A stretch of 64,000 nt of DNA from Chiloscyllium plagiosum (taxonomy: Eukaryota): NCBI RefSeq assembly GCF_004010195.1, contig NC_057718.1, positions 41,685,803 through 41,749,802 on the forward strand, in the 5' to 3' direction. The notes below the pieces were generated by a model. The model saw only the letters and a list, made by a program, of their open reading frames with translations. It did not search any database and was not told the DNA's origin. Shown here piece by piece: positions 749-53,200 of the stretch. The translations under genes were made by a program, and so were the position numbers. Every line of letters starts with the position of its first letter. Positions within the stretch are counted from its first letter, which is position 1.

Positions 749-1901
749 TAGATTAGAGTGGTGCTGGAAAAGCACAGCAGGTTAGACAGCATCCGAGGAG
801 CAGGAAAATCGATGTTTCGGGCAAACACCTTTCATCAGGACTGAAGGCAGGGAGCCTCCAGGGTGGAGAGGTAAATGGGAGGGGGGTGGGGCTGGGGAGA
901 AGGTAGCTCAGAGTGTGATAGGATGAAGGTGGGGGTGAAGGTGATAGGTTGGAGAGGTGGGTGGAGCGGGTAGCTGGGAAGGAAGATCGACAGGTCAAGA
1001 GGATGGTGCCAAGTTGGAAGGTTTTGCACCTCTTTGCACCACAGGGGAAAGTGCCTGGAGAAGAGAGTGGTTGGTGGGGGGGCATGGACCCAGCATCTAT
1101 AGTCCAACTCTGATCTACAGCACCTGCAGTTCTCACTTTCTCCTAGTTGACTATACTCTCCGCAAATCCAAGATGTAAAATCCAGGATTGTGGTGCACTC
1201 CTTCCTGCCATGCTCTGTATCTGGAGACCAAACCAACCAGGATTCAGCTTCAAACCCCACCTTGCTATGGAAATTACTGAGAAGTCAAAATGACACATTA
1301 ACCATAAAGCCTCATCAACATATTGTTGGTTTCTATTGAGCCACTAACATGGGGATGTAATTTATCTGGTGGGACAACAATAGCCATTGGACACTATGTC
1401 TCTATAAAAGCTGTGTCCACAACTTCCACATCACAGTGACCACTGGAGTGGGTTTTACACAAAATAATCCAACATTTCAACTCCTTCCTCACAAAAATAT
1501 TCCTGTAATTAGTGTTAAAATGGTTTATCTTGAGACGGTTATATCTCCAATAGAAGATCAGATATCAACAGTTATCAGGTCTGACCGAAAATATTGTGAA
1601 AACCCAACATCTTCACAAATATCTCGGACATTGCAGCAAAAACTCACAATTGCTGAGAAAATGTTGGAGACATCCTCTCTGGCAGTGCCTTCCTGAGTTT
1701 GACGGAGGGAGGGACAGACCATCTCCTCAAACATGACTGAAGGTCGTCATTGATGGTGATGGAGAGGTCCAGGAAGGGGAGGGAGGTGTCAGAGATGGTC
1801 CAGGTAAATTTAAGGTCAAGGTGGAATGTGTTGGTGAAGTTGATGAACTGCTCAACTTCTCACGAGGTGGCACCGATGCAGTTATCAGTGTAGCTTTTGC
1901 T
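749..1901 (-). mobile_element. Penelope-like element remnant (pLTR with hammerhead motif plus RT fragment) inserted at the end of Gypsy pol
   Basis: The minus strand at ~1745-1893 translates to YTDNCIGATS/EVEQFINFTNTFHLDLKFTWTISDTSLPFLDLSITI, the PLE RT YIDD region and FLD motif. Positions 749-845 are the pLTR end containing CTGATGA...GAAA. The flanks form a 14-bp direct repeat with 1 mismatch: AGAAATTAAGAGTC (735-748) and AGAAATTAATAGTC (1902-1915). The middle (~1150-1700) is unassigned. Confidence 0.8.
807..842 (-). ncRNA. Minimal hammerhead ribozyme motif (degenerate)
   Basis: The minus strand reads AGUC CUGAUGA AAGGUGUUUGCCC GAAA CA UC GAUU. The core boxes are intact and stem I is AGUC/GAUU. 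Stem II is weakened and the ACGU palindrome has become ACAU. Confidence 0.6.
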
Positions 1902-2049: not shown

Positions 2050-3215
2050 GGGAAGTGAAACCCCCTAAATAATCATAGTTAAAAATCACACAACACCAGG
2101 TTATAGTCCAACAGGTTTAATTGGAAGCACACTAGCTTTCGGAGCGACGCTCCTTTATCAGGTGATTGATGAAGGAGCGTCGCTCCGAAAGCTAGTGTGC
2201 TTCCAATTAAACCTGTTGGACTATAACCTGGTGTTGTGTGATTTTTAACTTTGTACACCCCAGTCCAACACCGGCATCTCCAAATCATAAATAATCATAG
2301 ATATATTTAAACTTTGCTTCAACATGTGTTTTTTTTTAATTAAGCGAGGTCTGTTACAACTGAGAGAGGAAGGTAGATGTAAATTCACTTGCTGTCTGCT
2401 AAAGTCCTGTATGGGACTGATGGAATGTTGCACCTGTAGAGGTGTGTCAGTGAAATTTCAAAGAAAGAAAGAGAAGCGTAACAAGGTGACATAATGAGGA
2501 AGCTGTCTATCTCCCCACTTACAGCATAAAGCTATCTCTTGCAGAAGTTGTGTGTTTTGGCCTCCCATGAAAATATGAGAAAAAGGGTTTAAAACCAACT
2601 ACAACTCTAATCTGTTGGTGGCCTGATGTTCCAGAGTGATGTGAAGGTTATAACTCTGAGAATAGTCATTTAAGTACTCTGTACTGCAGCTAAAATGAAT
2701 AGTAAGTATTCTCACTACTCTGATTGCTGCCAGCAAATCACATTTGAAAGGAATCAGAAAAGAAGAGTTTCAATCAATATAAAAAGGCAAGAATCTTGAA
2801 ATTGATTGTTGAACGATCAACATCAACTCTACCAGTAACATCCAGTTCAACAATTGCAATGTTCAAATAATCATGCCTCGTGGGAAAAATTAAAACTGAT
2901 CTTTATATATTTTTGTTAAACCTTTTCTCTTTGGATTCATTTCTTATTTCTAATCTATGTGCATATTTGTTGTGTTACTATTTCTTCTCAAGTTTTGTAA
3001 CTCATAAATTTACAACAAACTGATTAAGTTGCCTCCCTTTTAAAACATAAATTCATTTGGGTCTGAGGAAAAGGTATCCACAAGGGAAGGGATCCTTTCA
3101 AATTAACTTTGTTGTGATCAATTGGAGGGCAGATGAACAACTAGGGGGAGTCAGTTTACCCCTCCTCACCAAGAAGCTGAATAGTTTCAAGTATCCCACA
3201 TGGAACCATAAGAAA
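2050..3215 (+). mobile_element. Probable 3' LTR of the Gypsy-type element (interrupted by a PLE mini-insertion)
   Basis: It follows the pol remnant and a purine tract (GTGGGGGAAG, ~2046-2055). It is non-coding and ends near CCCCTCCTCACC...CCATAA. Boundaries are approximate. Confidence 0.45.
2077..2287. mobile_element. Palindromic PLE pLTR mini-insertion with two hammerhead motifs
   Basis: Inverted arms at 2077-2160 and 2167-2250 (84 bp each, 1 mismatch, 6-nt loop GGTGAT) are followed by a 37-nt tail at 2251-2287. The exact 13-bp TSD TAAATAATCATAG lies at 2066-2078 and 2288-2300. Confidence 0.9.
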
Positions 3216-7322: not shown

Positions 7323-10010
7323 TATAGAGTCTTCAAGATGCCCAGCACGAAACAGACCCTTCAGTCCAACTCATCCATGCCATCCAGATATCCCAACCTA
7401 ATCTAGTCCCATTTGCCAGCACTTGGCCCATATAGATCTAAACCCTTCCTCTTCATATACCAATTCAGATGCCTTTTAAATGTTGTAATTGTACCAGCCT
7501 CCATCACTTCCTGTGGTATCTCATTCTACACACACACCACCCTCTGCGTGAAAACGTTGCCCCTTAGATCTCTTTTAAATCTTTCCCCTTTCATCCTAAA
7601 CCAGTGCTCTTTAGTTCTGGACTCCCCTAATTCAGTGAAAAGACTTTGTCTATTTCACATATCCACACCCATCATGATTTTATTAACTTCGATAAGGTCA
7701 CCCCTCAGCCTCAGATGTTCCAGGGAAAATAACCCCAGCCTATTCAGCTTTCCCTATTGCTCAAACCCTCCAACCCTGGCAACATCCTTGTAAATCCTTT
7801 CTGAACCCATTCAAGTTTTGCAAACATCCTTCCTAAAGGAGGGAGACCAGAATTGCATGCAGTATTCCAAAAATGGCCTGTACAGCTGCAACATGATTTC
7901 CCAACTCCATGCTCAATGTTCTGACCAACATTGAACGCATACCAAATACCTTTTTCACTATCCTATCTACCTGAGACTCTACTTTCAAAGAAATATGAAC
8001 CTACACTCCAGGGTCTCTTTGTTCAGCAACAGTCTCTAGGATCTTCCCATTAAGCGTATAAATTCTATTATGGTTTGCCTTTCTAAATGTCTGCATTTCA
8101 CATTTGTCTAAATTAAATTTCATCTGCCACTCCATGGCCCATTTGCCCATCCATCAAGATCCCATTGTACTCTAAGGTAACCTTCTTCGCTGTCCATTAT
8201 ACCTCCAATTTTGGTGTCATGTATAAAACTTACTAACCATACCACCTATGTTCATATCCAAATCATTTATATAAATTATAAAAGGCAGTAGACCCAGCAC
8301 CGGTCCTTGTGGCATTCCATTGGTCACAGGCAACACTCCACCACCACCTTCGAGGTCTTCTACCTTCAAACCAATTCTATATCCAAATGGCTAGTTAGCC
8401 CTTTATTCCATTTGATCTAACCTTGCTAACCAGTCTACCATGAGGAACCTTGTCAAACTGAAGCCTGACTGAAGTCTATTTAGATCACATCAACCACTCT
8501 GCCCTCTTCAGTCCTCTTCATTACTTCTTCAAAAAACTGAATCAAGTTAGTGAGACATGATGTCCCATGCATAAAACCATGTTGATTATCTCTAATCAGT
8601 CCTTGCTTTTCCAAATACATGTATATCCTGTCCTTCGGAATCTTTTAATCTTTTCTGAACCCTTTCAAGTTTCACAACATATTTCCAATAGGAAGGAGAC
8701 CAGAATTACACGAGGCCTAACCAATGTCCTGTACAGCTGCAACATGACCTCCCAACTCCTGTACTCAATACTCTGACCAATAAAGGAAAACATACCAAAT
8801 GCCTTCTTCACTATCCTATCTACCTACAATTCTACTTTCATGGAGCTATGAACTTGTACTCAAAGGTCTCTTTGTTCAGTAACATTCCCCAGGACCTTAC
8901 CATTAAGTGTAAAAGTCCTGCTAAGATTTGCTTTCACAAAATGCTGCTCCTCACATCTATTTAAATTAAACTCTAACTGCCACTCCTCAGCCCATTGGCC
9001 CATCTGATCAAGATCCCATTGTAATCTGAGTAACCTACTTGCTGTCCACTACACCTCCAATGTTGGTGTCATCTGCAAACCTACTAACTGTACCTCTTAT
9101 GCTCACATCCAAACCATTTATATAAATGATGAAAAGTAGTGGACCCCACCGATCCTTGCGGCACTCCACTGGTCACAGTCTCCAGTCTGAAAGACAACCC
9201 TCCATCACCTCCCTCTGTCTTCTACCTTTGAGCCAGTTCTGTATCCAAATGGCTAGTTCTCCCTGTATTCCATGAGATCTAACCTTGCTAATCAGTCTCC
9301 CGTGGGGAATATTGTCGAATGTCTTACTGAAGTCCACAAAGATCACATCCACCGCTATGCCCTCATCAATCCTCTTTGTTACTTCTTCAAAAAATTCAAT
9401 CAAGTTTTTGAGACATGATTTCCCATGCACAAAGCCATGTTGACTATCCCTAATCAGTCCTTGCCTTTCCAAATACATGTACATCCTGTCCCTCAGGATT
9501 CTCTCCAACAACTTGCCCACCACCGACGTCAGGCTCACTGGTCTATAGTTCCCTGGCTTGTCCTTACCACCTTTCTTAAACAGTGGCACCACGTTAGCCA
9601 ACCTCCAGTCTTCCGGCACCTCACCTGTGACTATCGATGATACAAATATCTCAGCAAGAGGCCCAGCAATCACTTCCCTAGCTGCGCAAAGAATTCTAAA
9701 GTACACCTGATCAGGTCCTGGGGATTTATCCACTTGTGTGTATTTCAAGATATCCAGCACTTCCTCTTTTGTAATATGGACATTTTTCAAGATGTCACCA
9801 ACTATTTCCCTACATTCTATATCTTCCATATCTTTTCCACAATAAATACTGATGCAAAACACTCATTTAGTATCTCCCCATCTCCTGCGACTCCACACAA
9901 AGACTGCCTTGCTGATGCTTGAGGGACCCTATTCTCTCCCTAGTTACCGTTTTGTCCTTATTGTGTTTGTAAAAACCCTTTGAATTCTATCTGCCAAAGC
10001 TATCTCATAT
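7323..10010 (-). mobile_element. CR1/HER1-type LINE, 5'-truncated, with internal ~855-bp duplication
   Basis: ORF 9173-9862 has DKSPGPDQ, VPEDWRLANVVPLFKKG, NYRPVSLTSVVGK, QHGF..GKSC and DFSKTFD. GVPQGS lies at ~9150-9170 and FADD at ~9066-9080. The CR1 3' UTR is at 7323-7450. Confidence 0.93.
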
Positions 10011-17030: not shown

Positions 17031-17165
17031 ATTCACAACCACCTGATGAAGGAGCGGTGCTCTGAAAGCTAGTGTGCTTCCAATTAAACCTGTTGATCTA
17101 TAGTCTAGTGTTGTGTGATTTTTAACTTTGTACACCCGAATCCAACACCGGCATCTCTAAATTAT
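17031..17165 (+). mobile_element. Solo PLE pLTR end, same family as 2077-2287
   Basis: It is collinear with 2164-2287: CTGATGAAGGAGC..GCTC.GAAAGCTAGTGTGCTTCCAATTAAACCTGTTG...TTTGTACACCC...TCCAACACCGGCATCTC. Confidence 0.88.
17040..17074 (+). ncRNA. Minimal hammerhead ribozyme, intact core
   Basis: The sequence is CAC CUGAUGA A GGAGC GGU GCUCU GAAA GC UA^ GUG. Stem I is CAC/GUG, stem II is GGAGC/GCUCU, and a palindromic AGCU replaces helix III. The predicted cleavage site is after 17071. Confidence 0.75.
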
Positions 17166-21584: not shown

Positions 21585-21681
21585 AAAAACAGAAATTGCT
21601 GGAAAAGCTCAGCAGGTCAGGCAGCATCTGTGGAGAGAAATCAGAGTTAACATGTCAAGTCCAGTGATGTTTCCCCAGAAC
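21585..21681 (-). mobile_element. Old PLE pLTR fragment with a dead hammerhead
   Basis: The minus strand reads GTT CTGGGGA AACATCACTGGACTT GACA TGTT AAC TCTGATTTCTCTCCACAGATGCTGCCTGACCTGCTGAGCTTTTCCAGC. It has the same downstream block as the copies at 749-845 and 47040-47132. Confidence 0.65.
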
Positions 21682-50230: not shown

Positions 50231-53200
50231 TTGCATTCATTCAGTGACACACATGAACTTGGAAGCAGGAAATTTACTTACCATTGCAGAATCATACTTG
50301 CAGCCACAGAAATGCCGATCTTTTCCCTGTCAAATCTCCTATCAGTATTGCTTTCCCAATCTTCCTCTTGCTTCCAACAGCCCATCTGATCCTGTCTCTC
50401 AGCTTTTGAACCACCAGATTACATGCTAGTTCTGGCACTGCACCATTTGTACCATTCCATTCTGATCCTCCTGATTGTTCTCTGCTGACAGTTTGAAACA
50501 CAGCCCAGTGGTAGGTGCTGCTACCTCTGGCTGTGTGCAACCTTAGCCTGCAAGAAAAGTGCACAATGGCAGTGCATAGTTGTTTAGCTGGAGGTATGTG
50601 CAAGCTGTGAATTGTGGCAAGCACACAAACTTGTACAAGCTTGTGTCTGAAGCTGTGAATGTAAATTGGAGGATCTGATTGATTGATTGGTGGTACATTT
50701 AGATGTACATTGCAGCTAGGTTGCAATGGTTAGCTGCTTTCACAATGTCTACTTGGTGGAGTTCCTGCTTTGCAATGGATAGAGGATTTCTTTTCTCCTT
50801 TCCATGTCCTTCATCAAGGGCCTTTGTGCTGTATCTAATTGTTTGTCAGCATGCTGATGCCACTATTATACACTATTATTCTGGTTTAGGATTTCTTTTA
50901 CAACCAGTTTTAGAGTCTGTTGGAGCCAAAAATAATCTTCCCTTTTGGAAGTGCAAGCTGAAGTTCAATAGGGCTGCTAAATTTGAGAGGTGCTCAGCTT
51001 GCACAAAGTCAAGCCCATGCTAAGGTGCACAACTGCTCAACAATGCACCACGATGCAAATTACTATCCTTTAAATCAGCAGTCAGCGTGGAGTTTATTTT
51101 TTGGCTGCATCAGAACGAATCAGCACACATTAGTCGCCCTCCAAGTTTGTCAGCAGCAGAAGCAACCAAGGGCTAAGAAGAGATGAAAGGTACTATCAAG
51201 CCATTGGCTAGCCAAAGCTTCAAATATTTACCTTCACCTGCTGAACCTGTGAGGACTCAAAACTTTCTACTAAAGGACTTCTTGACGCAAGTATCTTTGA
51301 CAGTTGGTGCCATCTCTCTCAATCTCCAAGATTGCTTCAGTGCTAAAAGGAGTTTAATAACTTGTCAAAGAGTGAAGTCTTGTGATTCAGTTGGGAACAC
51401 TTCTGCCTTTGACCTAGAAGTTCTGGATCCAGGTCCAGGTCCTGCCTGCTGTGGGCATATTTTTTAATCATCTGCTTCAGGGATGTTATTACATACCTCT
51501 GGAGCAAGTGGGACTTGAACTCAGGTCTTGTGGTTTAGAGATAGGGGCACTACCACTGCACCATAACAGCTTCTATTTGCCTGTTATAAATGATTTGTTT
51601 TTGATGTGATTCAACATGTTGACAATCAACCTACTAACATAATGTTATTAGCAGATGTAAGTGAGCACGAAGGCACGAAACAGGCCTGAGAAGGGAATCC
51701 AATGTAACAGAAAATGTCCTGTTTTTTTCAGAACTTTCAGCCTTGACTCCTGTGTGCAATCAACTAAGGTTGTAAGTATCATGGTTAAGATGGACTCTGA
51801 CATCTTCATACCATCAGGTCACGTGTTATGATAAAGTGGTGATATCATGAGCATGTCTCTTAAAGGTACACTGACCATAAGACTTAACGCAACAGTAACT
51901 ACACCCGGAAATTGTGAGCATGTGCAGTTTGCAGAAGTTCGTAATATGATTTGAAGCAGCAGAATCTCATTCCCATTCTGTGAGGGCATGAGAGTTATAT
52001 TTGCTGATTGATATTCAAACCCTCAAGACTTTAATTCAAGCATGTTTCATATTCACAGTATTAAGAAATGCACAGCTTTTAATATGAATTGCTTCAGTTC
52101 ACCTCAGCGATAGTGAGACAAAACCTGTGATTAACAGCACCTGTCTTTCCCTTTGTTGATATTTTGAAAGGAATATAAAGGTTTCTTTCCACAGTGGAAT
52201 AGTCGAAGAGGATTTTAGTTTTCCCATATGATTGAAACCTGGCTGGAAGATAAATTCATTTTATTGGTTTCCTCTAGCTTGGCTGCTGTCCACGTTATCA
52301 CAGCAAGTATCCCAGCCTTTTCCTGTTGGTTCCAAATTTAATTAAACAACTTTCTTCTCTGAGAGAGGCAAGTCACCTTTGGGATGTAAAGATAATTTTT
52401 CTTTGTATGGAACATGTAGGCTACATTAAACAATGAGGTTTTGAGCATTTCATAAGGTAACCTATTCCCCAGTGGCCTGTGGAATGCTCTACCAGAATTA
52501 ATGACTGAAGCAGAAACCACATCAAAATGTAAAGAGGAAGTTTAGATTTGAGGTGAATACGAGAGGATACAAGGAATTTGAGAATCCGGCATATGGAATT
52601 AAGATTAGTATTCATGTGGGGATAAACAGCAACACCAATGGAATTGCCTAATTTTTGAATTGTAATATCCATGCAAATTTATGTTAGGAACTCAAAAGAA
52701 ATGAATTTCTTTGCTATTTCTGGCATACATACCATGCAGACACAGCACAGGTAACCTTTTTGATGAAGAAATTTGTGTGAAAGCGATTTCCATTCAATCT
52801 TTTCAGTGAATAATTTCCTCCCCTACAACTCCTCACGTCTCTGCATCTGCACTATGATCTGCTTGCTGGTCCATCACTAACTTCATTTTAATGCATTGAA
52901 GTGACAGTCAATGGTGAAGCACATCTGAACTTCCTAGATTTGGACAGCTCAGGAAAACATGTACTTCAATGAGGAGCAGCCACTGTCAGAAAATATGATC
53001 TTTGAAAGCTTTTCCTTTTGCCCAAAGTAAGCCCCATTGAATAACTTACTTTGTAATACAACAGTTCTGCAGCTTGGCTTATTTTTCTTCAGACTTTTAT
53101 GTTTATTATGACTCCCTGAGCTAGAAAAGTGCCATCTCCCATCAATACTCACCCCTTAATCTACCTCAGAAGACACATCTTTCTGGACTGTTGTAATCAA

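Follow-up and report, generated by a model that had tools for sequence, protein, structure and literature searches.

We found that the short palindrome at positions 2066 to 2300 of a 64-kb stretch of DNA (the whole stretch analyzed, hereafter the window) is best read as a single, heavily 5'-truncated insertion from an abundant family of hammerhead-bearing Penelope-like elements (PLEs), now an inert fossil, and not as a propagating element. We put the probability of this reading at roughly 0.87. A preliminary description had proposed an insertion by PLE machinery consisting only of pLTR ends, and the layout, the TSD, and the preferred 3' ends of the family support it; of the two options it offered for the unit, the second, a reproducible truncation product, is the one that gained support.

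In the window sequence, two arms of 84 nt each (2077-2160 and 2167-2250) differ at a single mismatch, T2156 versus G2171, and enclose a 6-nt loop (2161-2166), with a 37-nt tail (2251-2287) on the right side only. Identical 13-mers at 2066-2078 and 2288-2300 flank 209 bp; the match has no exact extension and is unique in the 64 kb, and the chance of such a repeated 13-mer is 7e-8 for a fixed site or 3e-5 when 10 nt of slack is allowed at both ends. The arms, mismatch, loop, one-sided tail, and exact 13-bp TSD reported previously were thus all found again. The two left-arm bases at 2077-2078 fall inside the TSD, leaving an element-derived arm of 82 nt plus the loop. The arms are opposed head to head, with the inverted copy on the left and the direct copy on the right; the loop is element sequence found in the inverted copy only, and positions 2167-2168 belong to both copies. 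The target is AT-rich (11 of the 13 TSD bases are A or T), and the insert, 209 bp in total, has neither a poly(A) tract nor an ORF between the repeats.

We aligned four public sequencing runs, of 24 listed, to positions 1800-2700. Two of these, X1 and X4, are contig sets from organism A from two studies, X12 is a contig set from organism B, and X21 is a set of raw RNA reads from organism A, of which about 2% was used. The window itself may derive from the X1 sample. The features of the palindrome, with the evidence for each, are as follows.

2066 to 2078, plus strand: left TSD copy, AT-rich, 13 bp (sequence; X1 contig 1861-2096); its last 2 nt match the element end too, a possible priming microhomology.
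2079 to 2168, minus strand: inverted pLTR copy, from 7 nt before hammerhead C3 to the first of the two preferred 3' ends of the family (the counterpart of 2249-2252; loose ends peak at 2078, 2251, and 2252).
2130 to 2164, minus strand: minimal type I hammerhead motif whose core is altered by G8A at position 2156; its helices I and II are able to form when the motif is folded alone, and the intact base is present in 95-97% of family depth.
2161 to 2168, no strand: inversion centre, made up of the 6-nt loop and a 2-nt overlap (2167-2168) common to both copies (comparison with the copy at 17036).
2167 to 2250, plus strand: direct pLTR copy from hammerhead U4, without C3 and the 5' strand of helix I; it covers the would-be cleavage site 2194/2195.
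2206 to 2246, plus strand: family poly(A) signal, ATTAAA at 2206-2211 with AATAAA in one subfamily; poly(A) addition at 2223 and 2226, followed by a GU-rich stretch; mirrored at 2081-2121 on the minus strand (family-level evidence).
2251 to 2287, plus strand: PLE "tail," 37 nt, up to the family's second preferred 3' end at 2287-2288 (loose-end peaks at 2287 and 2288).
2288 to 2300, plus strand: right TSD copy, whose first base matches the element too (junction contigs in X1, X4, and X12).

Both outer junctions are present in X1, the left in a contig covering 1861-2096 with 0 differences at a depth of 17.3 and the right in a contig covering 2265-2700 with 1 difference at a depth of 19.3. These contigs show that the inverted arm on the left and the direct tail on the right, each beside a TSD copy, are real. 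The exact centre of the palindrome was in none of the 24 contig pieces listed, from a set with 209,715 further pieces, and rests on the assembly. We consider it very improbable that the palindrome or its centre is an artefact of assembly or library making, or that a longer true insert has been collapsed. Besides the missing centre, such a reading could draw on the detection of the left junction in only one of the three DNA runs (the X4 contig ends at 2069, and X12 has zero depth at 2017-2047) and on the trouble that insertions of this type are reported to cause in short-read assemblies (PMC8557442). However, the two X1 junctions have equal, single-copy depth and opposite element orientation, the TSD is exact, the loop carries element sequence that the other arm lacks, and there is a one-base difference between the arms; a copying artefact would give neither of the last two. 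Separately, we noted that depth beside the left arm (1865-2069) is low or zero in X4 and X12 and normal on the right flank, which may reflect loss of hairpin fragments during library making.

The arms correspond to the end of a repeat present in very many copies; 64,609 to 75,748 contigs aligned to it per DNA run. A non-inverted, direct copy lies at 17033-17162 (plus strand), is 89-91% alike, has its core and tail intact, and starts 9 nt before C3; no clean TSD was found around it, and no longer copy of the family was found within the 64-kb window. The best-supported loose ends of the family, where flanks are unrelated and AT-rich (consensus agreement about 0.35), fall at two sites about 36 nt apart. 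Counted from the best 24 of 1,272 rows, so that all figures are lower bounds, X1 has at least 1,590 contigs ending at 2287-2288, at least 1,013 at 2251-2252, and at least 209 at the mirror position 2078; X12 has at least 1,611, at least 1,037, and at least 212 at the same three places, and X4 has at least 606 at 2287-2288 and at least 298 at 2251-2252. The outer ends of the palindrome lie one at each of these two best-supported 3' ends. A 9-bp stem encloses the first of them (site 1), and a stem-loop around the start sites scored no better than shuffles (z = -0.63).

By analogy, the two 3' ends of the family would match the two internal reverse-transcription starts known for PLEs. The study of PAc, a Poseidon element from the green anole (Frangieh et al. 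2024, PMC11167929), describes a protein that cuts AT-rich DNA on both strands and begins reverse transcription at two internal positions whose spacing equals the genomic tail, and reverse transcription there needs no ribozyme cleavage. PAc and the palindrome family have in common two preferred 3' ends a tail apart, AT-rich targets, and an uncut template. In PAc, the ORF begins inside the hammerhead and the starts lie more than 100 nt into the ORF (PMC11167929), whereas in the palindrome family the reading frame that opens at the core ATG runs for 8 codons before a stop, and, judging from the loose-end letters, an ATG may lie beyond the end of the tail. On every testable feature, all of them non-coding, the family appears from its sequence to be an endonuclease-bearing PLE. 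An arm 27-mer had 0 matches in viral contigs and 0 in prokaryote genomes. The one match of a junction 20-mer in metagenome contigs (n = 1, L001) was set aside as chance; it lies between two bacterial genes and has no wider likeness to the palindrome.

The palindrome layout has already been published for PLEs, and only the size is extreme here. PLEs typically have a 5'-truncated copy beside them in inverted orientation, together with a tail of 30-40 bp (PMC8557442). Inverted pLTRs with TSDs of 8-10 bp and a tail of 31 bp have been described and self-priming proposed for them (PMC3846280), and new PLE insertions are reported to have a median length of 128 bp (PMC9977147). The complex PLE insertions in these studies (Arkhipova et al. 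2013, PMC3846280; Craig et al. 2021, PMC8557442) share with the palindrome the head-to-head pLTRs, the palindrome at the junction, the 30-40-nt tail at one end, and a short, variable TSD. The palindrome differs from them in having no ORF, in being 209 bp as a whole, and in its 13-bp TSD compared to 8-10 bp in the rotifer cases described (PMC3846280). In the literature searched, with the older Penelope papers outside its range, we found no description of palindromes of this kind in sharks.

Several other classes of element were considered. L1 twin priming also leaves an inverted, truncated insert between TSDs, with both target nicks used as primers, and the twin-primed pieces derive from different regions of a single RNA and carry a terminal poly(A). 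In contrast, both pieces of the palindrome derive from the same region, and there is no poly(A) tract. A MITE or foldback DNA transposon was rejected because the 37-nt tail separates the right arm from the TSD and because a lone, direct copy of the arm sequence exists at 17033-17162. A microRNA precursor was rejected as well; the Rfam scores for MIR860 (72.8 of 89 bits) and MIR845_1 (51.4 of 81 bits) are below the gathering thresholds and come from pairing alone. Non-LTR retrozymes (Li et al. 2026, 10.64898/2026.07.22.740005) are likewise short, non-coding, pLTR derived, and hammerhead bearing. By definition, they need at least two head-to-tail units with complete hammerheads, and this class was rejected for the palindrome, which is head to head with neither hammerhead intact.

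A minimal type I hammerhead is present in the family repeat, recognizable by its core, a single additional base ahead of helix II, a G10.1-C11.1 pair, and a palindromic helix III; an Rfam search did not report it. These are the features listed for minimal hammerheads of metazoan PLEs (Cervera and de la Pena 2014, PMC4209133), where the core is the same, an extra base lies between positions 9 and 10.1, and opposite-strand pairs 100-700 bp apart were noted. Unlike those motifs, both copies in the palindrome are broken (U3 with G8 in one, C3 with A8 in the other), and neither equals the natural U3-A8 variant. The minus-strand core carries G8A, a change private to few copies, as the intact base is found in 95-97% of DNA depth (three DNA runs) and in 819 of 841 RNA reads. 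The plus-strand core has lost C3 (C3U) together with the 5' strand of helix I. A hammerhead on each strand with one core defect apiece had been described earlier; the core letters were recovered, with the additional loss in helix I of the plus-strand copy as a correction.

Read-through RNA of the palindrome has a predicted folding energy of -162 or -168 kcal/mol, with a penalty of 25 kcal/mol when only helix II is forced to form. With G8A in one copy, C3 and helix I lost in the other, and both inside the -162-kcal/mol hairpin, the idea of working hammerheads had to be given up, and neither palindrome ribozyme is predicted to work. Such motifs need a same-strand partner to cut (PMC4209133), and a same-strand dimer cannot form from the palindrome cores. 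Cross-complementation of the two cores (U3 of one with A8 of the other) was rejected, since both bases must share one strand. Ribozyme cleavage was also rejected as the cause of the breakpoint; both arms span 2194/2195, so the template was uncut, and no pile-up of ends is listed there.

We also found family RNA in X21. There were 387 and 291 reads (678 in total) with poly(T) before 2101 and 2104, respectively, which corresponds to poly(A) after 2226 and 2223. These poly(A) sites lie 12-15 nt past ATTAAA and ahead of the GU-rich stretch, so poly(A) addition occurs inside the pLTR, 23-29 nt before the first start site and before both preferred genomic 3' ends. The polyadenylated reads may be element transcripts or host transcripts ending in family copies. 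No pile-up of RNA starts was listed for X21, and in the roughly 2% of this run that was aligned no locus-specific transcription was seen, with zero RNA depth at 1924-2047 and 2358-2700 and about one read between. A hairpin RNA and a cruciform from the palindrome are possible on paper.

For the origin of the palindrome, we lean moderately toward a fold-back route. In this route, a top-strand nick would prime at site 1 and a bottom-strand nick at site 2, and the site-1 cDNA would halt after about 90 nt, 7 nt past C3. The end of that cDNA would fold back on 2 complementary bases, closing the 6-nt loop, and would prime synthesis of the mirror arm, and the site-1 cDNA would anneal to the site-2 cDNA; G8A would be a later point change. 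The alternative to fold-back is end-joining of two cDNAs via the same 2 nt. The halt itself may have been the 5' end of the RNA, in which case stubs and palindromes would be complete run-off copies of that end, a suggestion we hold tentatively and at somewhat less than even odds. Poly(A) addition in the downstream pLTR would remove both start sites there, and a monomer transcript would consequently have start sites only 90-130 nt from its 5' end; the Penelope pLTR contains a transcription start (PMC8557442). Carried further, the palindrome could be a stereotyped run-off product, with transcription from 5-12 nt before the core giving 90-130-nt stubs, fold-back giving palindromes of about 210 bp, and full-length moves needing tandem read-through; this extended model is again a tentative one, to which we give a little less credence than to its negation. 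No statement of a run-off model for PLE inverted repeats was found in the literature searched, a search with the older Penelope-promoter papers outside its range.

We then considered the first option of the preliminary description, an independently amplifying unit, in which the 209-bp palindrome would be a non-autonomous element that is transcribed, primed in its single-stranded tail, and re-inserted whole. A table of joints between arms has 691 rows, and all 15 joints listed differ from one another, with 5 of the 15 present in all three DNA runs; most of those listed have less than 30 nt on one side and are flagged unreliable, some may be library or alignment artefacts, and some deep joints are confined to one run and are possible library fold-backs. 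The arm-start offsets of these 15 joints range from -78 to +36, values that do not separate fold-back from end-joining. Another single-copy X1 contig (2114-2220) can be aligned over the centre, although with 8 differences and 4 gap positions, and in three joint rows (2166 to 2239, 2121 to 2170, and 2117 to 2198) one arm starts a few bases before C3. Together, this contig and the three rows show that similar centres recur. RNA reads that reach the centre depart into other sequence (144, 319, 278, and 134 reads), and in three of these four groups that sequence is mutually similar and also like the part of the 17033 copy that lies upstream. Within the window, short copies from two families start 7, 9, and about 6 nt before C3, and three longer copies continue upstream. 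The starts of the short copies fit a preferred stop at the 5' edge of the hammerhead, which would give look-alike palindromes without amplification.

The other contig across a similar centre speaks for a mini-element, as do some joints of other copies at 20-100 times single-copy depth and the existence of non-autonomous PLEs such as MRC1 (PMC8557442) and the retrozymes (10.64898/2026.07.22.740005). However, joints vary between copies, the RNA reads at the centre continue into other sequence, and transcription of the locus was not seen in the roughly 2% of X21 aligned. Read-through RNA would, moreover, reach the family poly(A) site before either start site, the hairpin would bury site 1, and copying from the tail alone would probably not rebuild a left end exactly at site 1. 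We therefore kept this reading only as an unlikely one and retain that of a single insertion product.

The insertion is shared between the two organisms. The right junction is present in X4 (contig 2264-2700, 6 differences, 2 gaps) and in organism B (X12; contig 2265-2696, 17 differences, 2 gaps). Of the 17 differences in organism B, 14 are listed at 2323-2569, and an empty allele would differ at 17 of 23 tail positions alone; this pattern shows that the site is filled in organism B. No empty allele was seen in contigs, which cannot prove its absence. The insertion predates a flank divergence of about 4%, and with the right junction common to organism B the earlier word "recent" no longer fits. 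A repeated "host LTR" around the palindrome was not borne out either, since the flanks are at single-copy depth at 88% likeness and have no second copy in the window; an old, diverged host LTR may be present.

For its age, the palindrome looks young, with 1 arm mismatch where 3.6 would be expected (P 0.12), a single position that departs from the family majority (P about 0.06, from 40 of 247 rows listed), and 7 intact CpGs in 2079-2287 in a window with a CpG observed/expected ratio of 0.22. The contrast between look and age is not significant, and conversion between the arms is possible. The near-identical arms and intact CpGs, the sharing of the insertion by two organisms, and the presence in each arm of a poly(A) signal used by the family could be taken to indicate that the insertion has been kept for host use, as a two-way poly(A) signal or a source of hairpin RNA. 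We regard this as the least probable reading, as arm identity is within chance and arm conversion would yield the same, the zero RNA depth in both flanks with about one read between (2% of one run) gives no sign of use, and no host gene was found nearby among the 16 of 68 long frames searched with Pfam. That search found pieces of LINE-type reverse transcriptase and endonuclease and one weak match below the cut-off.

The palindrome locus itself matters little, being one dead insertion among very many. As a class, minimal inserts keep the inversion centre and the two primer junctions together in 210 bp, and the formation of PLE inverted repeats and second-strand synthesis are still described as open (PMC8557442; PMC11167929). 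Tabulated across the genome alongside the two ends of the RNA, such centres could discriminate between fold-back priming and end-joining and show whether full-length transposition is limited by the poly(A) site in the pLTR. If true, the run-off reading would expose how PLEs make inverted repeats, and thousands of natural junctions in the genome could test it.

Other elements in the window were also recorded. At 48875-50238 is an older and larger head-to-head insertion of a second hammerhead-bearing family, with the layout of the palindrome, arms of about 520 bp that are 84% alike, cores at 48959 (minus strand) and 50121 (plus strand), a one-sided tail, and a 10-bp duplication with one mismatch. 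A broken frame within it resembles GIY-YIG nucleases, which is a lead only (score 0.92, family on 23% of the cluster), and Pfam searches of four pieces and one read-through of neighbouring PLE-like fragments gave no informative match. The fragment at 1670-1870 belongs to a high-copy repeat with very high contig depth and no Pfam match, and it looks like a piece of a retroelement reverse transcriptase. A 50-N assembly gap lies at 40009-40058, and the match of 26096-26527 (minus strand) to Pfam GCFC (E 0.006) is weak, below the cut-off, and may be chance. LINE-type fragments are present on the minus strand at 9176-9862 (RVT_1, E 8e-16) and 39554-40111 (Exo_endo_phos_2, E 6e-9). A third repeat family with a hammerhead-like core is found at 753-1140 (minus strand), 47037-47123 (plus strand), and 21597-21635; the core is intact at 838, and the copy at 47037 starts about 6 nt before the core.
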